This document shows positions 29,389-45,224 of a stretch of 64,000 nt of DNA, piece by piece. Location: the NCBI GenBank assembly GCA_050287085.1, contig JBNKBE010000015.1:1-64000 (forward strand), written 5' to 3'. The stretch is from Polyangiaceae bacterium (GTDB lineage: Bacteria; Myxococcota_A; Polyangia; Polyangiales; Polyangiaceae). A program made the translations under genes and the position numbers. The notes beneath the pieces are model-generated. The model saw only the letters and a program-made list of their open reading frames with translations. It did not search any database and was not told where the DNA came from. Numbering within the stretch: position 1 is the first letter of the stretch; each line of letters begins with the position of its first letter.

Positions 29389-29818
29389 AACATCCTACCA
29401 AGACGCGCCAGCCCCCTCGACAGGCGCAAGAAGACGAGGTCGCATTCTTCTTTATGACAAAGTTGGCGGGCGCGCACTCCACAAAGCGCCTCCCATCGCC
29501 GGGATCACTCGCCGCGCTTTGTCGTAAGGCCCCTGGAGCCCTACGCCTAGAACCCCGGACGGCGACCCTTTAACCCGCAACGATCATTCTTTTTGAGTTG
29601 AGCTCGTCGTTTCCTTGCTGCAACAATCTTGCATCAAGGCGAGAGCTACCAGAGCTGACAAAGGACGGCATCACGGCGGTCCGCGCCGCCTAACGCCCGC
29701 CGTGACGTACCACCGACGGGACTCGCACGGTCGACGACTCGAACGTGTTTGGGCTGGCTCACCTTTCGAGTTGCGCCTGCCAAACGAATGAGCCAAAAAT
29801 GGACGGGTGGGTTGGCCA

Positions 29819-29900
29819 CAATTCGTAGGAGCCGCAGTTCGTAGGAGCCGCAGTTCGTAGGAGCCGCAATTCGTAGGAGCCGCAATTCGTAGGAGCCGCA
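29819..29900 (+). repeat. 16-bp tandem repeat x5 containing AGGAG, abutting a start codon
   Basis: ca(a/g)ttcgtaggagccg at 29819, 29835, 29851, 29867 and 29883, followed by caATG. Confidence 0.95.
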
Positions 29901-31394
29901 ATGAATCGCACGTCTGGGAGCAAGAACGCAGTGAGAAGCCTATTGTCGACTGGTGAGCTCCTGTTGCTCGCGCTGGGTGCTTGGGCTACGGCCTGCGGGG
30001 GTCAGTCGGAGAGCACGCCCCCGAACGGAAGTGACTCGAGCCAGACCGCGACTGGGCAAGCGGGTAGCAGCAGCGAAGGCGCGCCGAAGAGCCCGGAAGG
30101 TGGCGGCGGAGCTGACTCCACCAAAGACGTTGCCGGCCCCACGATTGCGGAGGCGGGCTCCACAGGTACCGTTGTCGATTCCGCAGGGAGCGGCGGCGAC
30201 ACAGGTGGCGCAGCCGGATCACCCGCGACTGGCCAGGGTGGCGGCAACGACGAGGGCGCCACTGATGGGGATGGCGAAGCGGGTAAAGCCGGAGCCGACG
30301 CCGACATGGGTGAAGCTGAAGCCGACGCCGACATGGGTGAAGCCGAAGCCGACGCCGACGCGTCTGGGACACTCTCCTTCGCTGAGCCCATGTTCTACCC
30401 CGGGGGAAGCTGGGCCATGGACATAGGCGTGGCAGATCTCAACGGGGATGGCGCCCTCGACGTGGCTTCGGCCGACTTCAGCAACGTCACCGGCGGAGTC
30501 TTCGTATGGTTGAACCAGGGAGACGGAAGCTTCGCTGCGGCCAGCCCCTACCTGCTCGGCGAGCATGGGGTCTCGATCGAGGTGGCCGACATCAACGGCG
30601 ACAAGAAGCCCGACCTGATCACTGCAACCGAGGATAGCCTCAGCGCGCTTTTGAACAACGGCGATGGAACATTTCCGTTGCCGTCTCGCCTCGCCGGGAC
30701 AGGTTATGGAGTCCGCGCGTTGGACGCGAACGCGGACGGCCAGCTTGATTTTCTCGCCGGCACCACGCTGTACCTCAATCAGGGGGGCGCCCAGTTCGAC
30801 CTCTCCGCTAAGAAGACGGCGGGCAGGCCCTGGGTCGCGACCGATTTGAATGGTGACGGGATGACCGACGTCGTAGGCGCAGGGGTAGGCGTCTTCGTGT
30901 CGCTGGGCCTCGGAGCGGGCGACTTCGCGCCCAGCGTGCTGTACGACGTGGGCGTCGTCGGCAAGGGGACGACAACACGCGGGACAGCGGTGGGTGATAT
31001 CAACCACGACGGATGGCCCGACATTGCAACCGTCAACGACAGCGACGCGTCTGCGGCCGTGCTCTTCAACCAGGGCGACGGTACATTTTCCAAGCCCGAC
31101 CTCTACGCCACCGGCTCATGGCCGACTTCTGTCGCCCTGGGAGATCTCGACGCTGACGGGTGGCCCGAGCTCGTGGTGGCTAACAGTGGCGCCGCCACCC
31201 TGCACACCAGTCGCCCCTACCTGGCGGTATACCGCAATCTCGGCGACGGCACGTTCGCCCCCCCCGAGGAGTTCCTGGAAGTCGGCTACCCCTACGCCGT
31301 CATGCTGGCAGATCTGAATGGAGACGGCAAGCTGGACATCACCGTCGGTGACGGCGGTGGCAGGCTCGCGGTCGTCCTAAACACCACGCGCTGA
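29901..31394 (+). CDS. FG-GAP/VCBS repeat lipoprotein
   Basis: ATAC lipobox, acidic Gly linker and seven DxNxDGxxD-type repeats. Confidence 0.9.
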   Translation: MNRTSGSKNAVRSLLSTGELLLLALGAWATACGGQSESTPPNGSDSSQTATGQAGSSSEGAPKSPEGGGGADSTKDVAGPTIAEAGSTGTVVDSAGSGGDTGGAAGSPATGQGGGNDEGATDGDGEAGKAGADADMGEAEADADMGEAEADADASGTLSFAEPMFYPGGSWAMDIGVADLNGDGALDVASADFSNVTGGVFVWLNQGDGSFAAASPYLLGEHGVSIEVADINGDKKPDLITATEDSLSALLNNGDGTFPLPSRLAGTGYGVRALDANADGQLDFLAGTTLYLNQGGAQFDLSAKKTAGRPWVATDLNGDGMTDVVGAGVGVFVSLGLGAGDFAPSVLYDVGVVGKGTTTRGTAVGDINHDGWPDIATVNDSDASAAVLFNQGDGTFSKPDLYATGSWPTSVALGDLDADGWPELVVANSGAATLHTSRPYLAVYRNLGDGTFAPPEEFLEVGYPYAVMLADLNGDGKLDITVGDGGGRLAVVLNTTR

Positions 31395-32487: not shown

Positions 32488-32890
32488 TAACCCAAGAACG
32501 ACCCCAGTCGCGAGCACTTGCAGCTTGCGGCCGCGCCGCTAGCTCGTCCGGACACCGCCCAGTGTCACTGTGAGCCACCCGCAGACTGCTCAGGCCAGGG
32601 TGCCGGTCATGCGCCGGGGAGTAGTTCGCTGCGCCGATACCCGGCCAGCCTTCCTCCGATGCTGCAACGCAGGCTAGGGTCACCGCATCTGCCCACCAGG
32701 CTGGCGCCACGTATGCCGGACTTATGGCCGGATGCGGCGAATACTCCCACGACGGCTTCTCCACACGGCGGTTCCACGCCCTAGGCGCTCTGTTTCATGA
32801 GGGGTTGGAACAGGCCAGGCTGGGATACGCTCCTATGCCTCACGAGTGCGATTGCAAAGCAGGCTGGAGAACGGCTATTGGCCAAGGGCC

Positions 32891-35800
32891 ATGCTGTCGT
32901 CCCTCCCCTTCGCACGCCGCGCTCTGTCAGTGATTCGCGACTTGGTATTTCTGTCGTGTGTATGCCCCGCGATCGCTTCCGCGGGTGCGTTGCCCGCGCC
33001 GGAGCCAATCGGCCCGTACCTAAACGGCGCATTTCCTGATACGGCACCGACCATCGAATGGGGCGTTGTCGACGCGTTTCCAGCGCTCGAGTTTATCAGC
33101 CCGGTCCAGATTATGGAGATCCCCGGATCTTCCAAAGTTGCCGTCGTAAGCAAGCGTGGGCGTATCTGGGCGGTGGACAACGACGAGTCTGCTACCGTCA
33201 AAGACCTCGTTCTCGATATCAGCGCACAGACTCTGATCCACGACGACGGTGGGTTATTGGCTATTGCGTTTCATCCCCAATTCGACGTTCCTGGTGCCCA
33301 AGGGGAAGGTCAGCTCTTCGTATGGTACCGCTACACGCCGGACCCAGCTCACGTGGGACGGCAAGGCTACTTGCGCCTTTCGCGCTTCGACGTCGACCCG
33401 GCAACGCTGGTCGCGGACGGGCAGTCGGAGTTCGTTCTCATCCAGCAATACGATGCCCACGACTGGCACAACGGCGGCAGTCCGCGATTTGGCGCTGACG
33501 GCTTCCTGTATTTCTGTGTGGGCGACCAGGGTGAAGAAAGCTACGCCGGAGGAACTCGCCAGCAGACCGACAAGTACCTGTTTAGCGGTGTTTTCCGGAT
33601 TGATGTCGATCAAGATCTGAGCCGCAGTCATCCTATTCGGCGCCAACCCCAAAGCTGGGAGACACCGCCATCGGGCTGGCCTCCGAGTTTCACCCAGGGC
33701 TACACCATTCCGAACGATAACCCGTGGCAAGACCCGAGCGGGGGAACCCTCGAGGAGTTCTACGCGTTGGGGGTCCGCAGTCCACACCGAATGGCGTTCG
33801 ACCCGGTCACGGGCGCGCTTTGGCTTGGCGACACGGGCGCCGGTCTTCAAGAAGAGATCAACTTGATCGAGAAGGGCGCCAACTACCAATGGCCCTACGT
33901 CGAGGGCACGTTTCGCCACCAGAACACGCCATCTCCCCTGATAGGCTTCGAGCGTCAGCCGGTGCACACGTTCCCGTCAGGCGCGGTGGTAGGTGGCTTC
34001 GTGTATCGCGGGACACGTTATCAAAGTGAGCTGGAAGGCAAGTATCTGTTCAGCGACTTCAACAGTGGGCGCGTTTTCACCCTCACCCATGACGCCGCGA
34101 CCAACACCTGGAACAACGAGCTGCTCGTCGACCTCGCCGACACCGGCATTCCCGCTACCCAGCGCCTGACCGGTGTCTCGACGCTCTCCGATGGCGAAAT
34201 CTATCTCACCTGGCTTTACCAGTACCGCACCAGCATCGAGCAAGGAAAGGTCTTCAAGTTGGCGCCGTTGCCTCCGGCCGGAGGAGAAGTTCCTCCGACG
34301 CTATCAGCCACGGGAGCCTTCACGGATCTCCAGACCCTCGCGCCTGCTGCGGGCCTCATCCCCTTCGACGTCAATCAACCCTTGTGGTCTGATGGCGCGA
34401 CGAAGTCGCGCTGGCTGGCGATCCCCAACGACGGAACCCACGACTCGGCGGCGGAGCAGATCACCTTCTCGGAAAATGCTCCCTGGACCTACCCGCCCGG
34501 AAGCGTTCTGGTCAAACACTTCGAACTCGGTGTCGAGGACGCCGACCCCACGCAGAAAGTCCGTCTCGAGACGCGGTTCTTGGTCATGCAAGCCAACGGC
34601 GGTGCCTACGGCCTGACCTATCGCTGGAACGACGCTGGCAGCGAAGCCTATCTGCTAAGCGGCGCCGAAACTCGCGACCTGGACATCGCACTCGCCGGAG
34701 GCGGCACGCGGCAACAGACCTGGACATTCCCCAGCCGACAGGATTGCAGCGAGTGCCATACGTCTCAGGCGGGGTACGCTCTCGGGCCGCACACGTGGCA
34801 GCTCAATCGGGACTTCGACTATCCCAACGGCAGCACCGACAACCAGCTCATGACGTTCCGAGACCTCGGAATATTTGCTAACCCGTTTGCGGCAGGAGAT
34901 CTCGATACCCTGCCCAAGGGCGTCAACCTCAGCGATGCCAGCAAGACGCCGGCCGAGCGCATCAACAGCTACTTGGCTGCCAACTGCTCTCAGTGTCACC
35001 GCCCGGGTGGAATCGAATCTGGGCTGGACGCGCGCTTCGACTTCCCCGTCGAGTCTCTGATCGGCGCCCCTGCCATTGCTCACAGCTCCACCGCCAACGT
35101 CATCGTTGCAGCCGGTGATCGGTGGAGCTCCGAGCTCTACATTCGCGACGCTTCCATAGGAGCCGGAGCTATGCCACCGCTCGCCAAGTCGATGGTGGAC
35201 GAGACCTACGTCGCAGTGTTGGAGGCGTGGATAGACGGTACCTGTCCGGACTGCCCAACGTGCAACGATGGCAGCCAGAACGGCGATGAGACCGGCGTCG
35301 ACTGCGGGGGCGCAATCTGCTTCCCCTGCCCGGGCTGCACCGATGGGGTCCAGAACGGGGACGAAACGGGTATCGACTGCGGTGGCTCTGTGTGTGGAGC
35401 GTGTTCGGTCTGCGAGGCCACAGGCTATGATGCTGCAGAAATGACGCCCTCAACGGGAGGTCAGGTCGGCGATGGCTGGAACCTCTGGTCGAACGGAATG
35501 CTTTCGGTCGACCACGACTTTGTGGCGGGTGAAGCCATCGTGACTGTAAGCGCCCGTGGTGAGTTTGCCGGTGGTGAGTGGCCCAACATGGTGCTCAGTC
35601 TAGACGGCATTCCGATCGAAAGCGTCGAAGTCGCGAGCTCCAGCCTGAACGACTACGTCTTCCAATTCCAGGCATCGGCAGGTGTACAACAACTCGGCGT
35701 CGAATTTACCAACGACTACTACCAGAGCCCGGATGACCGGAACTTGATAGTCGCGCATGTCGAGATCGATTGTGCCGGCCCCCCTCCTGATCCGTTCTGC

Positions 35801-37492
35801 GGAGACGGCACCTGCGATCCAGCCGAGACGTGTTCCACCTGTGCGATGGATTGCGGCGTGTGCCCTACCTGCAATGATCAGCAGCAAAACGGCAACGAGA
35901 CCGGCGTCGATTGCGGCGGGTCCTGTCCCGCATGTCCGACGCTCCCCACGCAGGTTTGGCTGGAGGCAGAAGCCGGAACACTCAGCGGGAGTCCCGCATT
36001 CCAGGTCGGCAGCGACGCCACGGCGTCCGGGGCCGCCTATCTGTCGCCTACCTCGAACAACCTTTCCTCACCCGGCCCCAACCGGGCAAGCTATGGCTTT
36101 GAAAGCGAGGCGGGCAGCTACGTACTTTGGGCTCGGGTCATCGCGCCGAACAGTGACGACGACTCGATCTGGGTGAGCGTGGACGGCGGCAGCTTCATCC
36201 GTTGGAACAACATCCAGGCGAGTAGCACTTGGACCTGGGATACCCTGCACAACAGCGACAGCGGCGACGCACAGGTCACCCTGAACCTCTCGGCGGGCTC
36301 TCATACGGTAACCCTCGCCAATCGCGAAGACGGATTCCGTGTCGACAAGCTGTACTTGACCGCGGAAGGAGATGTGCCCTCGGGCCTCGGCGGGGGTTCT
36401 GGTTGCGAGCCGGATACCTGCGCCTCGCTCGACGCAGCCTGTGGCTCCGTCAGCGACGGCTGCGGCGCATCGCTCGACTGCGGTAGCTGCGCAAACGGAC
36501 AAGTCTGCGACGCCAACAACCAGTGTGTACCAGAAGGCGGAGGTGTCGTTCCGACCAGTGGCAACACTTACGAGTTGCACAACGTTGGCGATGGCTCTTG
36601 TCTCTCGCGGGTCGATGCGGCCACCGACAATGCCGCGGCCTTGGCGTGCACTTCGAGCGTCGATCAGCAATGGCTGCTCTCCACGGTCGGCGCCTACTTC
36701 AAGCTCGAAGTGGCTGCCACGGGAGACTCCCTCGACGCCGAGGGTGCGAGCACCGCGACCGGCACGAATCTCCTCTTGTGGGCCTACGGAGCGGGTGCGA
36801 CGAACCGCGAATATACGCTGACCGCGTTGGGCAACAATGAGTACCAGCTCGAAGCGCGGCATGCCGCAGGACAATGCGCCGTCAAGAATGGCACCAATGT
36901 CGAGCTGGGGCCGTGCAACGGCGCCGCGACGGCACGCTGGACGTTCCACGACGGCTCTAGCTGCACTCCTAGCTGCGCCGGGCTCGAGTGCGGCGGAGAT
37001 GGTTGCGGCGGGTCGTGTGGTACGTGCGGCGCCAACGAGATCTGCGACGCGGCTCAACAGTGCGTGCTGGCACCAGGGGAGATCCCGAGCTCCGGCAACG
37101 CGTACGAGCTTCATGGCGTGGCTGGCGGCGGATGCCTCACCCGGATTGACGCCGGCACTGACAACGCGCGGGAACAAAGCTGCATTGGGACGAGTGATCA
37201 GCAATGGCTGCTGACAGCGGTGGGGAGCTACTACAAGCTCGAAGTGCTCACCACGGGCGATTGTCTAGACGCGGAAGGTGGTCGCTCTACCGCGGGAACG
37301 AACCTCCTGTTGTGGCCGTACGGCGGCGGAGCTGCAAACCGAGAATACGCATTGGTAGCGCTCGGCAACAACACCTACCAACTGCAGGCGCGACACGCGC
37401 CAGGTCAGTGCGCGGTGAGTAACGCTGGCAACGCAGAGCTTGGCCCCTGTACGTCCAGCGCCTCGGCATGGACCTTCCACAGCATTCCGTAG
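32891..37492 (+). CDS. secreted multidomain glucose/sorbosone (PQQ-type) dehydrogenase-cytochrome c protein with Cys-rich repeats, CBM-like and ricin-B-like domains
   Basis: GLLAIAFHPQF, WHNGG...FGADGFLY, IPNDNP, GVRSPHRM. LWSDGATKSRW...RLETR with CSECH and CSQCH. CNDGxQNGDETGVDCGG repeats. FTNDY...DRNL (CBM60-like). WLEAE module. Two QQW-containing ricin-like repeats. Confidence 0.88.
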   Translation: MLSSLPFARRALSVIRDLVFLSCVCPAIASAGALPAPEPIGPYLNGAFPDTAPTIEWGVVDAFPALEFISPVQIMEIPGSSKVAVVSKRGRIWAVDNDESATVKDLVLDISAQTLIHDDGGLLAIAFHPQFDVPGAQGEGQLFVWYRYTPDPAHVGRQGYLRLSRFDVDPATLVADGQSEFVLIQQYDAHDWHNGGSPRFGADGFLYFCVGDQGEESYAGGTRQQTDKYLFSGVFRIDVDQDLSRSHPIRRQPQSWETPPSGWPPSFTQGYTIPNDNPWQDPSGGTLEEFYALGVRSPHRMAFDPVTGALWLGDTGAGLQEEINLIEKGANYQWPYVEGTFRHQNTPSPLIGFERQPVHTFPSGAVVGGFVYRGTRYQSELEGKYLFSDFNSGRVFTLTHDAATNTWNNELLVDLADTGIPATQRLTGVSTLSDGEIYLTWLYQYRTSIEQGKVFKLAPLPPAGGEVPPTLSATGAFTDLQTLAPAAGLIPFDVNQPLWSDGATKSRWLAIPNDGTHDSAAEQITFSENAPWTYPPGSVLVKHFELGVEDADPTQKVRLETRFLVMQANGGAYGLTYRWNDAGSEAYLLSGAETRDLDIALAGGGTRQQTWTFPSRQDCSECHTSQAGYALGPHTWQLNRDFDYPNGSTDNQLMTFRDLGIFANPFAAGDLDTLPKGVNLSDASKTPAERINSYLAANCSQCHRPGGIESGLDARFDFPVESLIGAPAIAHSSTANVIVAAGDRWSSELYIRDASIGAGAMPPLAKSMVDETYVAVLEAWIDGTCPDCPTCNDGSQNGDETGVDCGGAICFPCPGCTDGVQNGDETGIDCGGSVCGACSVCEATGYDAAEMTPSTGGQVGDGWNLWSNGMLSVDHDFVAGEAIVTVSARGEFAGGEWPNMVLSLDGIPIESVEVASSSLNDYVFQFQASAGVQQLGVEFTNDYYQSPDDRNLIVAHVEIDCAGPPPDPFCGDGTCDPAETCSTCAMDCGVCPTCNDQQQNGNETGVDCGGSCPACPTLPTQVWLEAEAGTLSGSPAFQVGSDATASGAAYLSPTSNNLSSPGPNRASYGFESEAGSYVLWARVIAPNSDDDSIWVSVDGGSFIRWNNIQASSTWTWDTLHNSDSGDAQVTLNLSAGSHTVTLANREDGFRVDKLYLTAEGDVPSGLGGGSGCEPDTCASLDAACGSVSDGCGASLDCGSCANGQVCDANNQCVPEGGGVVPTSGNTYELHNVGDGSCLSRVDAATDNAAALACTSSVDQQWLLSTVGAYFKLEVAATGDSLDAEGASTATGTNLLLWAYGAGATNREYTLTALGNNEYQLEARHAAGQCAVKNGTNVELGPCNGAATARWTFHDGSSCTPSCAGLECGGDGCGGSCGTCGANEICDAAQQCVLAPGEIPSSGNAYELHGVAGGGCLTRIDAGTDNAREQSCIGTSDQQWLLTAVGSYYKLEVLTTGDCLDAEGGRSTAGTNLLLWPYGGGAANREYALVALGNNTYQLQARHAPGQCAVSNAGNAELGPCTSSASAWTFHSIP

Positions 37493-37501
37493 CCTGACGT
37501 G

Positions 37502-38154
37502 GCGCGAGACAGCGGACGCCGCTGGAATTGAATGGGCCGGGCCGAACTCGCGGCAAGCCCGGCGCGAGTTCGCAAAACCCAACCTGGCAAACCGGCACGG
37601 CAAACCTCAAGCCCGGCGCGAGTTAGCGCAAACCTAGCGCAAACCTAGCGCAAACCTAACCAGGTTAGCACGCACGCAAACCTAACCGCAAACCTAACCA
37701 GGTTAACCTCAACCGCAAACCTAACCAGGTTAACCTAACCAGGTTAACCTAACCAGGTTAACCTAACCTCAACCTGGCAAACCTGGCAAACCTAACCAGG
37801 TTAGCAGAGCAACCTGGCAAACCCACGCACGCAAACCTCGCGCAAACCTAACCAGGTTAACCTAACCTCGCAGCACGCAAACCTCACGCAAACCTAACCA
37901 GGTTAGCACGCATAACCTCGCAAACCTAACCAGGTTGGCAAACCTAACCAGGTTAGCAGAACCTGGCAAACCTAACCAGGTTAGCAGAGCGGGCGAACTG
38001 GCGGCGAGCCCGGTGTGGCGCGAGTTAACCCTTGGCCCGCGGCGAACCCTAACCAGGTTGGCGCAGGGAGCACGCGGCGAACCCTTCGCGAACCATACCG
38101 AACTCGCGGCGAGCCCGGAGCCGCGCAAGACTGGACGCCGCGGGATTGAATGGC
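37502..38154. repeat. left mosaic repeat array flanking the HUH transposase
   Basis: About 11 exact AACCTAACCAGGTT (e.g. 37653, 37691, 37718, 37732, 37746, 37789, 37845, 37891, 37923, 37941, 37969), plus many truncated GCAAACCT units. Bounded by imperfect direct repeats. Confidence 0.95.
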
Positions 38155-38313
38155 TCGAGCGCGCAGCGTGGCCCGGACCGCCACTTCTCCGTATTCCACA
38201 AGCGCGACCGCACGTTTCGCACGTTTCACCGGCGCTCAACGGCACGTCGGTGCCCACCAAACGCAGCGGCGCCGTCTTCGCTTGAGGTCCCTGACGAGCC
38301 AACTAGCGCCAAC

Positions 38314-39201
38314 TCACCCCGGGGGCTCGACGGCTACGCCGTACAGCACCCGCATCCGCCAAGTTCCCGCGGGAAACTTCTGTGACCGGTCTCCGCCGCA
38401 CCAGGCTCGGAGCGCTTCGCGGTAGGCGGAGCGAAACGCCTGCTCGATGCTGATGAAGGCGACGCGGATGGAAATGTTACGTGCGGCCACCACGGGGTTG
38501 ATGCGGCGCTTCTCTTCGTAGCGGGTTGCACGCTTCGAGAAGGACTTCTTGCGCACCGCCGCGGCTCCGAGGAAGCGGAGTCCTTGGCGCTCGACCTCCC
38601 GCCGGGCGTGCTCTACGTGTGTGGCAGCCGCCACAGAGAGAGACTGCTCCCAAGCGTCTTCATCATGCACGTACGGAGGGGGCACGATGGCGAACTCGAC
38701 GTACTTCGGCATGCCACCGTTCGGGTCGAAATAGACGTCGGGGCGCTTAGTCTCGCGCCGCGTGCCAGGCTTCCAATGGAGCACGCCCGGCCATCGTCCA
38801 GGACGATCGACGAGCCCAGCAGCAACAGGATTGGCGACGACGTAGGCGATCTTGTCGAGCACGTCGCCCCGTGCCGGAAGGCGGACAGCACTGTAGGACT
38901 CAGCGGACCACAGATTCTCCCACTGCCCCTGGGTGGCGTTGAGTGCCTTAGCTGTCAATCGATGGAACTCACGAGCGAACTCCGGCAGTCGCCCCATCAC
39001 GTCGGTGACGACGAGGTGATGGTGATTGCTCATCACCACGAACGCGTGCACCTGAACACCGGTGAGCGCCGCGGCGTAGCCCAGGCAGTACTCGAATATG
39101 GCGTTAGTGCGCGGTTCTGGGCGGAGGCGAAACGTGCGCTGGTAGACGCGACGGGTGAGCAGATAGGTTGCACCAGGAACGACTCTGCGCGGATGGGCCA
39201 C
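38314..39201 (-). mobile_element. HUH Y1 transposase, REP-associated tyrosine transposase (RAYT)-like
   Basis: N-terminal YLLTRR, HUH motif VMSNHHHLV, catalytic IAYVVANPVAAGLV...WPG. 295 aa, no tnpB, flanked by repeat arrays. Confidence 0.9.
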
Positions 39202-39212
39202 GACTTACCTTG

Positions 39213-39228
39213 AGCAACACCCATGCCC
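39213..39228 (-). promoter_or_regulatory. candidate sigma54 promoter of the transposase
   Basis: Minus strand GGGCAT-GGGTG-TTGCT (GG-N10-GC). Predicted +1 at about 39202; GTG start at 39201. Confidence 0.6.
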
Positions 39229-39334
39229 GCGATAAACGTTGCATCGCCCAACCAGATTGCGAACCAGTGCGCTGTTCGCCACTTGTGGACAGGTCGGTAG
39301 CCATGCCTCATGCCGACGCCACTGCGCTTGGAAT

Positions 39335-40003
39335 GGGTAACCCAAGGGCACCGCAGGGCACCCCTGGCACCAACCTGGTTTCGCTGGTTGCCGCGCCGGA
39401 CGCTGCCACGCCAAGCGTCGACATCGCGCACGCAGGGTTCAACCTGGTTAGGGCACCCCGTTGGCGCCAAGCGTCGACCCCGCGCGCGGCAAGCTCGTCA
39501 CCAACCTGGTTAGGGCACCCCAGGGCACCCCGGTTCAGGGCACCCCGGTTCGGTTGACATCGAAGGGCACCAAGGGACGCTGCCGCGCCAAGCGTCGACC
39601 CCCGCGCGCGGCAAGCTCGGCACGAACCTGGTTTCGCTCAACCTGGTTAGGGCACCCCGCGGAGAACCCCAACCTGGTTAGGGCACCCCGAGGGCACCCC
39701 GCGAGGGCACCCCGAGAACCCCAACCTGGTTAGGGCACCCCAGGGCACCCCCGAGGGCACCCAGCGCGTCGCTCAACCTGGTTAGGGCACCCCAAGGGCA
39801 CCCCGCCGGTTAGGGCACCCCGCCCAGAACTCCAACCTGGTTAGGGCACCCCGAGGGCACCCCGCAGCCCCGAGGGCACCCCGAGGGCACCCCGAGGGCA
39901 CCCCCGAGGGCACCCAGCGCTGGTCGACATCGCGCGCGGCACCAACCTGGTTTCGCTGGTTTCACCAACCTGGTTTCGCTGGTTAGCCCTCGCTGGTTAG
40001 CCC
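39335..40003. repeat. right mosaic repeat array flanking the HUH transposase
   Basis: Seven CAACCTGGTTAGGGCACCCC, about 20 AGGGCACCC in total, and recurring CACCAACCTGGTTTCGCTGGTT and CGCCAAGCGTCGAC modules. Confidence 0.95.
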
Positions 40004-40533
40004 AGTTCGTCGAGAATCGCCTGGGCTCGCGTGTTTGCGGCGTCGAAGGGGTCACGCCGCTCTGAGCTGGGACGCGCATCCCGGGCGCCCACGAGCGCGA
40101 ACCCACTCTGCACAAGGAAAAAGCCCCATGCCGCGAGCGCGTCGTCGAAGGGTCCGGTCCCAGCCAACACCATTGAGAACGCTAGACCACCGCCGAGAAG
40201 CATCGCTTCTACGACGAGCGCCCGCTGTCGTTCGGACGGGTAGAGCACCAGGCTTCGAAGGAGGCCCAACGCAAGCAGGTTGACCAAGCCCAAGATCGCA
40301 GGGGAGGTTCCCAGCATCCACAGTCCGATCGACACGCAGAGCAGAAGCGCGCTAGCGCCTACCGCGCCCCGAGTTTTCGGCGCAACGAAGAACAGGTAAC
40401 TGGGTACCAGCCAGAGCAACGCGAAGAGGTAGGAGCGGTGGTAGCCGCCCGTGGCAGCCCACGCGGCAAACGTCCCCAGACCTGCTCCCCCAGCAAAGAG
40501 CAGCGCACGACCGAAGCCACCGCGCCGGCTCAC
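39997..40533 (-). CDS. multi-pass membrane protein
   Basis: About 6 hydrophobic segments; 4-nt overlap with the PspA-family gene. Confidence 0.8.
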   Translation of the reverse strand: MSRRGGFGRALLFAGGAGLGTFAAWAATGGYHRSYLFALLWLVPSYLFFVAPKTRGAVGASALLLCVSIGLWMLGTSPAILGLVNLLALGLLRSLVLYPSERQRALVVEAMLLGGGLAFSMVLAGTGPFDDALAAWGFFLVQSGFALVGARDARPSSERRDPFDAANTRAQAILDELG

Positions 40534-41066
40534 GGCTCACCCCCGCTCACCCCAGCGCGGCGCCTCAGGAGCTCGATCTCGATGTCTTCGTCCGTCACCG
40601 CCATGGGACGAGCGAGGGGACCTGGTTCGCCCTGCTCTTCCCGCTCCGTGAAGTGCCGCGCGCGCGCCCAAAGTGTCTCGAAGGTGGCTTGCTGCTCCTC
40701 AAGGAGCTGGCGCAGGTCTTGTTGTTCTTCGGCAAGCACGCGGCCGCGCTCGGCGATCTGCACCAGCCTTCGGTCCATGGGTAGCCGCTGACGAATGGCG
40801 TGGCGCGCTAGATCTTCCTTGTCGTTGGCCAGCGCCAGATCGATGTCGCGCTCAAGCTCGGTCTGGCGCGTCTTCAACCGCTCGCCCTCTCGCTCGAGCG
40901 CTTTGTTCTCGGCCGCCATGGCGTCGAGCTTGGCTCGCTTGCGGTTGAGCTCGGCCTCCGCTTCGCGCAGGTGCTGCCTGAGTAGCAGCGCCTTGTCTTC
41001 TACGGCATCGATCACGCCGTGACTTTCTGCCTTGAGGGTCGTCCCCACTCGTTCGAACCATCCCAT
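40530..41066 (-). CDS. PspA/IM30 family protein
   Basis: MGWFERV...IDAVED..LLLRQHLRE, coiled coil, ALANDKEDLARHAI. RBS AAGGAG. Confidence 0.85.
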   Translation of the reverse strand: MGWFERVGTTLKAESHGVIDAVEDKALLLRQHLREAEAELNRKRAKLDAMAAENKALEREGERLKTRQTELERDIDLALANDKEDLARHAIRQRLPMDRRLVQIAERGRVLAEEQQDLRQLLEEQQATFETLWARARHFTEREEQGEPGPLARPMAVTDEDIEIELLRRRAGVSGGEP

Positions 41067-41094
41067 GATGAAGTCTCCTTCTTGTGTGTCCCGC

Positions 41095-42597
41095 TTACCT
41101 GTAGCTGCCGGCGCGACGCGCCTTGATTGAGCTCGATTGAACGCGTTTGCTGAGGTGGTTCTTCTTCTCAGCCACATCGGGTCCGTCGAACACCGACCCG
41201 ACCTCGGACTCCAGCTGCCGGGCTTGATCCACAGCCTCGCTAACGGCGGGGCTCGGCTCTGGCGCTGCGGCGTTCATCGCCTCGTAGCGAGTGCGCCACG
41301 CAGCGATGGCCTTCTGCGCTTCTTCCTTCTCGCCGCGCTGTACCAGGGCCGCTACCTCGGTGCGCATCTTGTTGTACGCGTCAACGCCGACCGCTTCCCC
41401 CCATGCTTCGGAGTTCAGACCCGCGAAGAACGCCTCACGGTCACTGACGACATCAAGCGTCGGCAACTGGGCAAGCTCGAGCTGTCGCGGAGCGCCGTCT
41501 TGCGTGTACTCGACGCGGAACGTTCCGAGCTCCAGTCGCTCGCCCGTTGGCCGTGCGCGTAGCGTCAGCCAAAGCTTGCGCACCTGACCGGCGTACAGCG
41601 AGCCGACGTGGAAGCGCTGGATTCCCCCGGCGTTTTCGATCGGGTAGCCAGCGGCGTCCAACACCTCTACACCTCTCTCGCTGGAAAACGTCACCGCGAC
41701 CGAGCTCGCGAGCGTTTGTCTAGCCGAGTCGAACTCCTGCGAGATGATCTGTCCGAGACCCGCTTCCCCGTCGAGATAATAGTAGTTGCCCGTTCCACGA
41801 TCGGCGAGGCGACTCATCAGGGTTTCGTTGAAGCCTTCACCCACCCCGATCGTCGAGATGACGTATTCACCCGGAACCGCACGACCGGCTCTGGCCCCGA
41901 GACCCTCAAGTGAGGGGTCACCTTCGTTGGCATGGCCGTCGGAGAGCAACAGCATGCGACGCGCCCGTCCCGTGCCAGGGCCCGCAAACATAGGCGTCGC
42001 CAGATCCAGCCCGGCGCTCATGTTGGTCCCTCCGGCGGTGTCGAGCCGGCCGATGACGCTCCGCCAGCCTCGCTTGACGTCCGCTGTCGCCACAGCCAAG
42101 GGAATGTCTACGCGTGCGCCCGACTCGTAGGTGACCAGGGCGAAGCGATCCTCGCCGGAGAGGTTATCGAGCAGGCCAAGAAGGGCGATCCGTGCCGCCT
42201 CGAGCTTCGTGCCCGACATCGAGCCTGAACGGTCGAGAACAACAACCACGTCCGTGGGTCGCCTGACCGCCGCGCCGTCGAGTGCATCGGCGGACAACTG
42301 GAGTTGGACACGGACCTCCCCGTCTCCACCCCGCAGCATAGCGGCTCGGTCCACCACGGCGCCCACATGCACCTTGCCATCCGCAGACTCCGCCTTCACT
42401 TGGGGCGACAATGCAGGCGCTGGTAAGTGCAGGACTGGCGCTGGAGCCACCAGGCCCGCGGGCGTGCCGTGCCTTGCCGGAACGAGGAGCCAGTTCTTGG
42501 CCAAGGCGCTGGCGGCGATGGTCAAGAGCGTGAGCGCTCCGACCAAGATCAGTCCGCTCCGGCCGCGGTTTATGAAGAGTTTCTGCTTGATGGACAT
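41095..42597 (-). CDS. membrane-anchored vWA domain protein
   Basis: MIDAS VLDRSGSM, GGTNM, LLSDGHAN, and an N-terminal TM segment. Confidence 0.9.
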   Translation of the reverse strand: MSIKQKLFINRGRSGLILVGALTLLTIAASALAKNWLLVPARHGTPAGLVAPAPVLHLPAPALSPQVKAESADGKVHVGAVVDRAAMLRGGDGEVRVQLQLSADALDGAAVRRPTDVVVVLDRSGSMSGTKLEAARIALLGLLDNLSGEDRFALVTYESGARVDIPLAVATADVKRGWRSVIGRLDTAGGTNMSAGLDLATPMFAGPGTGRARRMLLLSDGHANEGDPSLEGLGARAGRAVPGEYVISTIGVGEGFNETLMSRLADRGTGNYYYLDGEAGLGQIISQEFDSARQTLASSVAVTFSSERGVEVLDAAGYPIENAGGIQRFHVGSLYAGQVRKLWLTLRARPTGERLELGTFRVEYTQDGAPRQLELAQLPTLDVVSDREAFFAGLNSEAWGEAVGVDAYNKMRTEVAALVQRGEKEEAQKAIAAWRTRYEAMNAAAPEPSPAVSEAVDQARQLESEVGSVFDGPDVAEKKNHLSKRVQSSSIKARRAGSYR

Positions 42598-42709
42598 GCT
42601 GCCTTCCGTCGGGTTTGGAGCGCCGCTCGGCACTCGCTGTGGTCAACTAGGACTAGCGTTGGGCGGCGATCCATGCTCCCAAGCTTGTGTAAAAGCTGCG
42701 GCGGGAGGA

Positions 42710-42726
42710 TTTACATTCGATTTACA
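42710..42726. promoter_or_regulatory. OmpR/PhoB-type direct-repeat operator
   Basis: TTTACA-N5-TTTACA (11-bp period), with an additional TGTAAA at 42688, between the divergent vWA and response-regulator genes. Confidence 0.65.
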
Positions 42727-42769
42727 CTCCCCGAGGATCCCACGCGGAATTTGGGCGTACACTGACGTC

Positions 42770-43462
42770 ATGGGAGAGCCTAGCGCGCCGCGCCTGCCCG
42801 TCCTCGTCGTGGAAGACGAGAAGAGTATTCGAGACGGGATCTGCGACGTGCTGGCGTATCGCCACTACGCGCCGACCGGGGTTGAGACGGGTGAGGCGGG
42901 GGTCGAGCAGGCGTGTTCGGGGCGCTACTCGCTCGTCGTGCTCGATGTTATGCTGCCGAAGATGAACGGGTTTGACGTGTGTGTTCACATCCGCCGCGAG
43001 CAACCTGAGCTACCCGTCGTGATGTTGACCGCCATGGGGGCCGAGGAGGACATCCTGCGCGGCTTCGAATCCGGCGCGGACGACTACGTCACCAAGCCGT
43101 TCAGCGTGCGCGAGTTGCTCGCTCGTATCGAAGCACTGCTCAAGCGATCGGGAAAGCTCGCCAGTGGGGCATTCAGTTTCGGACCCTGGCAAATCGACGC
43201 CGCGCGACTGATGGCGAGCCAGGGGGACGCCCAGATCGAGTTGACGCCCCGCGAGCTGGCGATCCTACGACTGCTGAAGAAGGAGCCGGGCCGCATCGTG
43301 AGCCGCCGCGTTCTACTGCATCAGGTGTGGGGCTTCCAAAACGCCGACCAGCTCCAGACCCGCACCGTCGATGTGCAAGTGGGAAAGCTGCGCAAGAAAC
43401 TACGCTCCGCTGGTGACCTGATCGAAACGGTGCGCGGAGCGGGCTACCGAGTACGGGGGTGA
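42770..43462 (+). CDS. OmpR-family response regulator
   Basis: VVEDE, LDVMLP, GADDYVTKPF, LTPRE, RTVDV, ETVRGAGY. Confidence 0.95.
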   Translation: MGEPSAPRLPVLVVEDEKSIRDGICDVLAYRHYAPTGVETGEAGVEQACSGRYSLVVLDVMLPKMNGFDVCVHIRREQPELPVVMLTAMGAEEDILRGFESGADDYVTKPFSVRELLARIEALLKRSGKLASGAFSFGPWQIDAARLMASQGDAQIELTPRELAILRLLKKEPGRIVSRRVLLHQVWGFQNADQLQTRTVDVQVGKLRKKLRSAGDLIETVRGAGYRVRG

Positions 43463-43463
43463 C

Positions 43464-45224
43464 GTGAAACGGTTTCGACTCGTGTTCGCGATCGTGACTG
43501 TGGCCCTCGCCATGCCATTGGCCCTACTCGTGCTGTGGTCCGTGCGTAGCGTTGCCGAAGAGGATCGCTTTCGAACCCACGCGCTCGCGAGTCGCATCTT
43601 CGACGAGATGGAGGCCGAGCTGACCCAGGTGCTCGACGAGGAGTCGGGTCTACCCGCCGGGGCGGCTCGCTCCGACACGTCGCGAATGCGGCGGCTCACC
43701 GGAAGTTCCAGCTACCGAGCCGACTCCCATTCCTTCGTCGTGGGCTACTTCGAGGCGAATCACGCAGGCAACGTGGTAGCCGTGCCGAGACAACGCGGGT
43801 CGACGACCTCCACGGAGGAGCAGGCCAAGATCGAGGCGCTGGCCGAGAGCGTGTGGCAAGCGCCGGAGCCCGATGTCACACAGGCGCTTGCAGGGCAAAC
43901 GCAGCAGCAGGCAGACCCAGAGAGCGTCTACGCCCAGTTCGACAAACTGAATCGCAGCGGCGAAAAGCGCAGCGCGCGCTTGAAGAAGACGGTAAGAGCG
44001 CGTTCCAAGGAGATGGACAACCTGGACCAGCGCGCTGAGCAGCCCCGGATCCCGGCCCCCACTCAGTCCCAGTTGGACGCGGAGCCCCGCGCCCGGGCAC
44101 AGCGTTCACTCGGCAGTGATGCGCTAGGGGAGCTCACGTCTCGGCGCGCAGACTCGGACCATCTCTTGATCTTCCGCACCGTGACCGTGGCGGGTGGGGC
44201 CCAGCACGCCGGTCTCATCATCGACGTCCCGAAACTCGTCGAGCACTTCACACGTGAGATCATCGCTCCCAGCGATCTGGGCAGCTACGCCACGTTGCGT
44301 CCGCTTGCGGCCAGTGCCCCGCATCGCGACGCCACTGCGCCGGGGGGCGGGGAATTCATCCACCGCTTCGCCGAGCCCTACGGGCAGCTAGTGCTCAGCT
44401 TGACGCTCGCTGGACTGCCCAAGAGCGACAGTGCCGCCTACGTCTATTCACTTGGAGCAATGCTCGCGTTGGTGGCGGCGCTCGGCTTGTTGGCGGTCTA
44501 CCGTATGGTGAGCACCACAGTGGCGTTCGCGGAACGACGCAGCAACTTCGTTTCGGCGGTCACCCACGAGTTGAAGACGCCGCTCACGGCCATACGCATG
44601 TACAGCGAGATGTTGCAGGAAGATCTCGTGGCCGACCAACCCACTCGGGAACGCTACTACCGCACCATCACTGCCGAAACGGAGCGGCTCACGCGCCTGG
44701 TCAACAATGTGCTCGAGCTCTCGAACCTTGACCGCAACCAACGCCCGATGTCGCTGGTCGTGGGCGACGTCGGCCCTGTGCTGCGAGAGGTGGAGAGCAT
44801 CGTGCGTCCTCACGCCGCCGAGCAAGAGTTCGAGCTGCTGCTCGAAACTGCGGACGAGCTCCCCGCCGTGCAGTTCGAGCGCGACGCGCTCGTGCAGGTG
44901 CTTGTCAATTTGGTGGACAACGCGATCAAGTACGCGAGCACGGCTAGAGACAAGCGCATTCACCTGGTGGCCAATGCGAGCCCCGACAGAGGCGTCGTGC
45001 TGGCGGTGGCTGATCACGGGCCTGGCGTAGAAGACACCCATCTTCGCCACATCTTTGAGCCGTTCTACCGCGGCCAGCAGGAGCTGACCCGCACCGCGAA
45101 AGGCACCGGCATTGGTCTGTCGCTCGTGCGTAGCCTCGTCCAACGCATGAACGGTAGTGTCGGCGGGCGCAACACCACCCCCGGATTTGTGGTGGAGATC
45201 CGCTTGAGAGCCCCCCAAAGCTAG
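43464..45224 (+). CDS. membrane sensor histidine kinase
   Basis: Two TM segments, THELKTPL, NLVDNAIKY, DHGPG, IFEPFYR, GTGIGL. Confidence 0.95.
   Translation: MKRFRLVFAIVTVALAMPLALLVLWSVRSVAEEDRFRTHALASRIFDEMEAELTQVLDEESGLPAGAARSDTSRMRRLTGSSSYRADSHSFVVGYFEANHAGNVVAVPRQRGSTTSTEEQAKIEALAESVWQAPEPDVTQALAGQTQQQADPESVYAQFDKLNRSGEKRSARLKKTVRARSKEMDNLDQRAEQPRIPAPTQSQLDAEPRARAQRSLGSDALGELTSRRADSDHLLIFRTVTVAGGAQHAGLIIDVPKLVEHFTREIIAPSDLGSYATLRPLAASAPHRDATAPGGGEFIHRFAEPYGQLVLSLTLAGLPKSDSAAYVYSLGAMLALVAALGLLAVYRMVSTTVAFAERRSNFVSAVTHELKTPLTAIRMYSEMLQEDLVADQPTRERYYRTITAETERLTRLVNNVLELSNLDRNQRPMSLVVGDVGPVLREVESIVRPHAAEQEFELLLETADELPAVQFERDALVQVLVNLVDNAIKYASTARDKRIHLVANASPDRGVVLAVADHGPGVEDTHLRHIFEPFYRGQQELTRTAKGTGIGLSLVRSLVQRMNGSVGGRNTTPGFVVEIRLRAPQS

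Follow-up and report, generated by a model that had tools for sequence, protein, structure and literature searches.

The 64,000-nt window of Polyangiaceae DNA analyzed here, to whose positions all coordinates refer, belongs to a genome of 6.2 Mb (the query genome, G000) and contains an intact transposase gene of the HUH/Y1 type with a dense array of short repeats on either side (Table 1). Judged from its sequence, the locus is one copy of a mobile element of about 1.3 kb, in which a Y1 HUH transposase lies between two inverted ends. By the geometry described below, each array consists of local copies made repeatedly from its element end and has grown at its own locus; the copies share a nearly fixed outer end, whereas their inner starts vary and their seams are blunt. 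Designations beginning with L and G denote the loci and genomes that we sampled.

Table 1. Features of the element and of its two end arrays in the window.
Feature	Position	Strand	Remarks
Downstream (left) end array	37503..38155	-	12 cores, nested direct re-copies
Innermost downstream end core AACCTGGTTAGG	38048..38059	-	254 nt past the stop; family median distance 215 nt
Transposase gene	38314..39201	-	Intact 295-aa HUH/Y1 open reading frame, GTG start, no internal stop
Catalytic tyrosine Y120 (YVVANP)	38842..38844	-	58 residues past H62; predicted role from alignment with the 4ER8 tyrosine motif
HUH motif H60-H61-H62	39016..39024	-	H60 invariant, H62 in at least 90% of 60 homologs; coordinates computed from the open reading frame
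Upstream (right) end array	39335..40003	+	11 exact 9-nt cores, 7 with AGGGCACCCC tail, many tail-only units
Putative inner source of right-hand tail AGGGCACCCC	39355..39364	+	17-8 nt inside the first core; read from sequence
Innermost upstream end core AACCTGGTT, tail TCGCTGGTT	39372..39380	+	170 nt before the start codon; family median 143 nt
Outermost blunt 2 x 14-nt duplication	39976..40003	+	Unit overlaps the stop and last codon of the neighboring 178-aa gene

The 12-mer AACCTGGTTAGG has 12 copies at 37655-38059 (minus strand) and seven at 39441-39845 (plus strand), both sets reading outward, and 19 of its 20 copies in the genome sit in these two arrays. The full consensus sequences are confined to one side each, with nine copies of AACCTGGTTAGGTTTGC on the left only and seven copies of AACCTGGTTAGGGCACCCC on the right only. 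Repeated 10-mers cover 79% of 37503-38155 and 90% of 39335-40003, whereas none of 9,290 other 660-nt tiles of the genome exceeds 58%, and nearly all of the array sequence consists of copies of the element end itself. The tail of the innermost downstream core repeats the sequence 26-14 nt inside that core; because sequence matching both query tails lies just inward of the first core, a local origin of the side-specific tails at each end is probable. The outer edge of the left array (37503-37570) also resembles its inner part (38099-38155), with 75% identity between 38122-38145 and 37503-37526. At the outer limit of the right array, the overlap of the 14-nt unit with the stop codon of the neighboring gene indicates that this unit formed in place, and a homolog of the neighbor (51% identical) ends at nearly the same residue. 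The sole GTAG in either flank (39297) lies outside the repeats, and five of six repeat-unit strands folded no better than shuffled sequences (z -0.76 to +0.74), with one multi-unit stretch at z -3.08. An earlier note on this DNA had described an intact HUH/Y1 gene between outward-pointing repeats with side-specific tails, distinct from the GTAG-footed hairpins of repetitive extragenic palindromic (REP) sequences, and this description is borne out by the gene and its conserved catalytic residues, the repeats and their folding, and the genome-wide count of the core.

De novo motif finding in 201 family flanks yielded AACCNSGKTNNG, with the directional core AACCNSGKT, after exclusion of the query and of six loci, one a weak hit and five same-locus duplicates; each element end consists of this core and a tail of about 10-12 nt. 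In this sample the motif was present at 20-520 nt on the outward strand of 127/182 ends, on the other strand of 60/182, and further out in 23/165, and with the motif model frozen, 60 new loci gave 49/113 outward, 8/113 on the other strand and 9/108 further out. In some clades the core is one base longer and is therefore missed by the model. Among 122 loci with both flanks, 92 had the core at one end at least and 56 of them at both; several cores were present at one end or both in 59. Cognate ends were more alike than non-cognate ends, with tail identities of 0.50 and 0.37, respectively, in 39 loci of which kin are not independent. Homologs thus carry inverted-core ends and local repeats of their own, and the two ends of an element co-vary, as the earlier note had anticipated; the quasi-palindrome that it had seen in the core gives way to a directional motif in the family. 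The upstream flanks of L241-L244 (G089) carry other tandem arrays, with units of 6 nt and about 22 nt, beside elements in which the upstream core is apparently lost or altered.

Seam positions were counted from the first A of the core, with outward positions positive, in a first set of 118 perfect tandem units of at least 8 nt at 62 ends and in a second set taken from independent loci with the frozen motif model. The outward order at each end is interior, core and tail, followed by copies that begin anew at an inner position and end once more past the tail. The outer seam fell in the interval +16 to +23 in 64/118 units of the first set (54/104 without the query; 9.9-22.1 expected) and in 43/64 units of the second (5.7-14.0 expected). 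At the first core of 216 ends, this 8-nt interval held 40 seams (23 per kb), whereas the inner non-coding linker, 38 kb in all, held 23 (0.6 per kb). Microhomology was zero in 30/61 and 21/41 of the two-copy units within the interval in the two sets (20/41 in the first set counting one unit per end), and a simulation of blunt joining gave 52%. The inner starts of perfect units ranged from +15 to -96, with peaks at +9 to +11 and at +4/+5, and unit length spanned 8 nt to about 1.2 kb, including long restarts of 114, 202, 296, 594, 683 and 1,231 nt from the element interior that were joined at +17 to +22. Near the gene, 49/140 and 45/108 ends carried perfect tandem units of 10 nt or longer; further out, 9 and 13 ends did. 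No inverted copy of gene-internal DNA was found among 296 ends, every inverted match being to the array of the opposite end. A left-versus-right extension test based on first copies only (7/9, p 0.18) was not significant, and was superseded by the analysis of perfect tandems.

Arrays also differ between closely similar copies. The identical genes L032 and L044, which lie 13 kb apart, have different end arrays, and same-locus records with genes 99.7-100% identical have arrays that differ by single units (L004/L074 versus L075; L070-L072); longer differences between same-locus arrays could reflect assembly. Tandem partial or whole-element copies were present at L039, L242 and L243 (G037:C34, G089:C42 and G089:C35), and at L242D and L243D the restart begins in the flanking repeats of the opposite end, as though copying had run past the far end.

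We consider it fairly probable that the arrays arise as a side effect of repeated action of the transposase on its own ends, by nicking, extension and rejoining. The enzyme would recognize the core and nick the inward-reading strand about 8-14 nt outside it, leaving the enzyme linked through its tyrosine to the 5' end of the element. DNA synthesis would then proceed inward, either primed by the freed 3'-OH of the flank or as the nascent strand of a passing fork, and the new 3'-OH would attack the phosphotyrosine, inserting a tandem copy as long as whatever had been made. Stalling at a bound core could produce the common tail-only units and the peak of starts at +9 to +11, and run-through could produce partial or whole-element copies and possibly the transposition intermediate; each new core would be a new substrate, so that arrays nest. 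In their available text, published accounts describe HUH chemistry that proceeds by a 5'-phosphotyrosine and attack by a 3'-OH (PMC3333891), and Y1 enzymes that act at forks (PMC5027513). Given this chemistry and all the classes of unit observed, a nick, inward synthesis and attack by the 3' end would be the simplest single reaction. The pattern of seams is consistent with the proposal of the earlier note that the ends are repeatedly cut and rejoined or primed for re-synthesis, and transposition scars appear to be the best fit among the three outcomes that it had offered.

Several observations weigh against this mechanism. It is drawn from sequence, from which the cut strand cannot be read, and no cut-site dinucleotide was reproducible: CC or CG ended 21/30 blunt units in the first set and 6/21 in the second. 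Inner starts were non-random (38/102 at +9 to +11), and some outer seams, at +4 or +8/+9, could mark a second or the true cut. The outer seam lay outside +16 to +23 in 54/118 units of the first set and 21/64 of the second, only 56 of the 122 two-flank loci had a core at both ends and 59 had several cores at one end or both, and neither loci nor units are independent of each other. The scarcity of microhomology of 3 nt or more, present in 7/42 units of at least 12 nt and in 199/309 background tandem units of the query genome, speaks for the mechanism, but coding repeats and partial third copies inflate the figure for that control.

The same blunt direct units would be produced by two cuts, one at the outer end and one at a variable inner site, with the fragment re-joined at the same end (peel-and-paste-like or by sister-strand exchange). 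Escherichia coli TnpA-REP cuts CT sites more than 400 nt from its REP, and excision and re-integration have been modeled for bacterial interspersed mosaic elements (BIMEs), according to the available text of PMC3333891. We nevertheless regard such a route as unlikely, given that the units nearly always adjoin their source and that inner starts show no dinucleotide consensus, whereas the characterized TnpA-REPs are described in the text available as needing CT or CA (PMC8266576). It is more doubtful still that the true nick lies at the outer edge of the core (+8/+9) on the outward-reading strand, followed by outward synthesis of 9-13 nt and rejoining. The peak of inner starts at +9 (14/61 and 9/41) would fit such a nick, as would the query tails, both of which join the core at the +8/+9 boundary and match sequence just inside it, but it would leave unexplained the units of 100-1,231 nt whose start lies deep in the element and whose end lies at +17 to +22.

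Ordinary growth of a variable-number tandem repeat, through host replication slippage or repair at a repeat-rich, protein-bound site with the transposase passive, could be read from the short microsatellite-like runs and variable C-runs inside the arrays, and slippage probably makes a secondary contribution once arrays exist. As the origin of the arrays it seems very improbable, considering that the seams lack microhomology and lie at a fixed distance from the core, and that perfect tandem units are concentrated near the gene as counted above. A diversifier or event recorder selected by the host, another suggestion of the earlier note, has in its favor that arrays vary between near-identical records, that minor variants at a depth of about 4 occur in the right array in contigs of run X1 (described below), and that the query arrays are the joint-largest sampled (14 and 12 motif hits). 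Set against these are the patchy multicopy distribution of the family and the lack of a conserved neighbor gene in the family flanks inspected. The locus region has no sigma-70-like promoter, terminator-like site or Rfam match at gathering score, and the array sequence is almost wholly copied from the end itself. Nothing points to a selected function of this kind, and we give the idea very little credence. Three Rfam microRNA matches in the region scored far under the gathering score and were regarded as chance. No RNA data set was listed for the stretch, which has no bearing on whether it is expressed.

The least credible explanation, to which we attach next to no weight, is an artefact of assembly. 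The evidence consists of short-read contigs, and we compared the locus with Logan contigs of run X1, which is possibly the source and so not independent. All 30 bins are covered by these contigs, which show one fixed substitution (38132) and include exact pieces of 88-209 nt within the arrays. No piece spans the whole locus, so the unit numbers are provisional, and the depth over the 14-nt tandem at 37708-37858 was 34.8, compared with about 13. Besides the exact pieces within the arrays, the finding of this geometry in two independent sets of other assemblies speaks against an artefact. Minor contigs at a depth of about 4 (of 10-20) at 39453-39663 differ by small indels and one extra seam in the right array, and may be population variants or mis-laid repeats.

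The family was present in 71/151 genomes of the class, often in multiple copies (up to 15 scored matches per genome), and the transposase gene was found in 23/61 relatives. In a wider search, 1,223 representatives (50% clustering) reached E 1e-30, and the named relatives were mostly Polyangiaceae or Myxococcales records. Copies at different loci of the same genome were 100% (L032/L044), 99.7%, 98.8% and 98.7% identical. With multiple, near-identical copies at different loci, the family is evidently recently mobile in relatives, and not domesticated as the earlier note had supposed. Its description of the gene as solitary holds in so far as the gene is single-copy in the query genome, where a hidden Markov model search of the genome found no further transposase match; it does not extend to the relatives, nor to the element ends, as a gene-less array of three outward cores with query-like tails (G000:C50:1375-1530, L145) begins a few bases past an apparent stop codon elsewhere in the query genome.

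Gene-less ends also occur in relatives. In its 9.5 Mb, G049 has 21 hits to the end motif, the majority next to a copy of the gene, and gene-less hits at C9:288884, C9:301774, C12:54563 and C21:35978 (L176, L163, L180 and L181) lie within about 2-9 kb of full copies; L163 resembles an element with an internal deletion, and the match at L176 could be due to chance. The gene-less hits near full copies in G049, together with the two identical copies 13 kb apart, suggest local hopping. The mechanism proposed above, if right, might also account for the many transposase fragments in these genomes. A plasmid search returned six weak N-terminal matches only. Among 17 other genomes of the genus, one matched the neighboring gene at 51% identity, too distant to fix an insertion point as an empty site. 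There was no excess of target-site duplications, the longest shared flank word averaging 4.69, compared with 4.56 in mismatched pairs (39 loci), and end re-copying could mask short duplications. Of 118 ends, 70 lay toward gene 3' ends, 46 away and 2 were uncalled with a crude gene caller, which is too weak for a preference.

The protein was aligned with 59 of the 120 homologs listed. Y120, N124 and P125 were invariant in all 60 sequences, W98 was conserved along with these residues, H60 and H62, and the family consensus motifs are NHHH, YVAANP and WPGV. The query itself matches no Pfam family and scores 62.6 bits, below the cut-off of 80, with NF047646 (NCBIfam), and Y1_Tnp (Pfam) is weakly present in 47/60 homologs. 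The predicted structure has a mean predicted local distance difference test score of 89, and in a search that covered residues to about 203, leaving the C-terminal part without an assigned fold, the closest solved fold was E. coli TnpA-REP (4ER8; Foldseek E 1.5e-5; Z 13.2, root-mean-square deviation 3.0, 155 aligned), followed by IS200/IS605 transposases (Z 7-8). The C-terminal extension of about 150 aa has no Pfam match, and Pfam models of DnaA-C/helix-turn-helix (HTH) domains gave no match in the 60 members at E 0.1. ESM Atlas returned Myxococcota clusters only, unnamed or named transposase. A subgroup (L057-L064, in G057 and G037) has a much longer C-terminus, with the stop about 380-420 nt further downstream, and several of its members have a different downstream end motif.

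The earlier note had proposed an undescribed system, but elements of this general type have been published. TIRtrons are Y1 genes (TIRYTs) between non-REP terminal inverted repeats (TIRs), of which 26 proteins were published (Di Nocera et al. 2013, PMC3733652), and TIRYTs have been equated with TnpAY1 subclass 2.1, or RAYT group 1 (Quentin et al. 2018, PMC6006769); we compare our results with the available text of both accounts. The element appears to work like a TIRtron and falls under the broad definition of one, as judged from the type of gene and the layout of its repeats. As in TIRtrons, a RAYT-like Y1 HUH gene is flanked by inverted repeats unrelated to GTAG REPs, the repeats lie at a set distance from the gene, and gene-less repeats occur elsewhere; biochemistry is absent from what is available of either account, and we found none in the literature for this inverted-repeat branch. 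The motif GGGGWSAS is common to some, not all, published TIRs, whereas the end motif here is AACCNSGKT. At 7 or 8 of its 8 positions, GGGGWSAS matched 16/179 tails and 9/179 control windows, indicating no enrichment; in the query, the right tail matches at 7/8 and the left at 5/8 at most. The elements here also differ in giving no Pfam match to DnaA-C/HTH in 60 members, in an HUH motif that reads NHHH, in their recent multicopy mobility, and in nested blunt re-duplications of the ends, which the available text of PMC3733652 does not describe.

Within the TnpAY1 scheme, as far as it is set out in the available text of PMC6006769, the query protein is in class 2 by its Y-x3-NP signature, and its motifs fit no listed subclass exactly. 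Like subclass 2.1 (about 58-67 aa from HuH to Y, no REPs), it has a spacing of 58 aa and no GTAG-footed repeats, but its NHHH, YVAANP and WPGV differ from the NHVH or NH[YF]H, Y[IV][EH]LNP and SS tail motifs of that subclass, of which 2.1.2 has a C-terminal DnaA-C/HTH domain and 2.1.1 an extension of its own. Subclass 2.3, with a 55-aa insertion and a spacing of about 110 aa, does not correspond to the query.

REPtrons, typified by the E. coli TnpA-REP of PDB 4ER8, share with the query the closest solved fold, Y-x3-NP and flanking mosaic repeats, and the model of BIME amplification in Figure 7B of PMC3333891, as available, is close to the mechanism proposed here, with a nick, host extension and an attack of the 3'-OH on Tyr-5'P that adds a unit. 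Unlike REPtrons, the elements here have no GT[AG]G-footed hairpins and no genome-wide repeat family, their seams lack the CT signature of the characterized enzymes, which are guided by GTAG to cut CT/CA in the available text of PMC8266576, and their units are anchored at one end and span 8 nt to 1.2 kb. REPtrons (groups 2-3) are described as immobile as units; the elements here are mobile and multicopy. With IS91/ISCR the elements share an HUH enzyme and a fixed start with a variable stop ('one-ended' events), according to the available text of PMC13181058; IS91 makes no target duplication, and no excess of such duplications was seen here. The ori and ter ends of IS91 differ from each other and its target is a tetranucleotide, whereas here the inverted motifs are equivalent, both ends reiterate and the fold is closest to TnpA-REP. 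IS200/IS605 elements (IS608, ISDra2) have the same Y1 HUH fold and single-strand chemistry coupled to forks (PMC5027513, in its available text); the protein here differs in having Y-x3-NP in place of Y-x3-Q and twice the length, and its inverted ends lack stable hairpins, in contrast to the same-strand subterminal hairpins of that family. We therefore rejected membership of REPtrons (no GTAG hairpins or genome-wide repeat), IS200/IS605 (no Y-x3-Q) and IS91 (no distinct oriIS and terIS ends).

How RAYT-like enzymes build flanking repeats has been a question since about 2010, and our literature search, with most subscription papers outside its reach, found no paper on end arrays of this kind. 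What appears to be new here is the replicated seam geometry of the end arrays, in an element type that is known (TIRtron-like) but unstudied. The signature seen in the products, with the outer end fixed, the inner end free and the seams blunt, was replicated, and it predicts a binding motif, a cut interval and a strand. If our reading is right, it would lend support from natural genomes to amplification by nick, extension and rejoining, so far only proposed, and would point to an HUH enzyme that acts without a hairpin or fixed cut-site sequence. More tentatively, and with less confidence than we place in the mechanism, the family could represent a distinct class of HUH insertion sequence, common in this myxobacterial class, with two equivalent inverted origins, in which a directional motif without a hairpin is read by a Y1 enzyme that cuts at a measured distance, with neither a cut-site sequence nor guide pairing, and joins the 5' end of the element to any nascent 3'-OH. 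One reaction would then account for end arrays, partial tandem copies, whole-element tandems and transposition, and successive events would be legible in the arrays as in a log; the arrays would also serve as a natural model of the origin of REP/BIME mosaics.

To the left of the element, a plus-strand gene (32846-37492), whose stop lies 10 nt from the left array, encodes a modular protein of 1,548 aa that combines a glucose/sorbosone dehydrogenase domain with a cytochrome-c-like stretch, CBM60 and several lectin repeats of the ricin-B type. To the right, in 39997-45224, the minus strand carries genes for the 178-aa protein, which is probably a membrane protein, for PspA/IM30 and for a VWA-domain protein (PspA and VWA from Pfam, the rest from translations); they are divergent from an apparent response regulator and histidine kinase, as read from translations. 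A 16-nt tandem repeat at 29815-29902, with 5.5 copies and 95% matches, is unrelated to the arrays.

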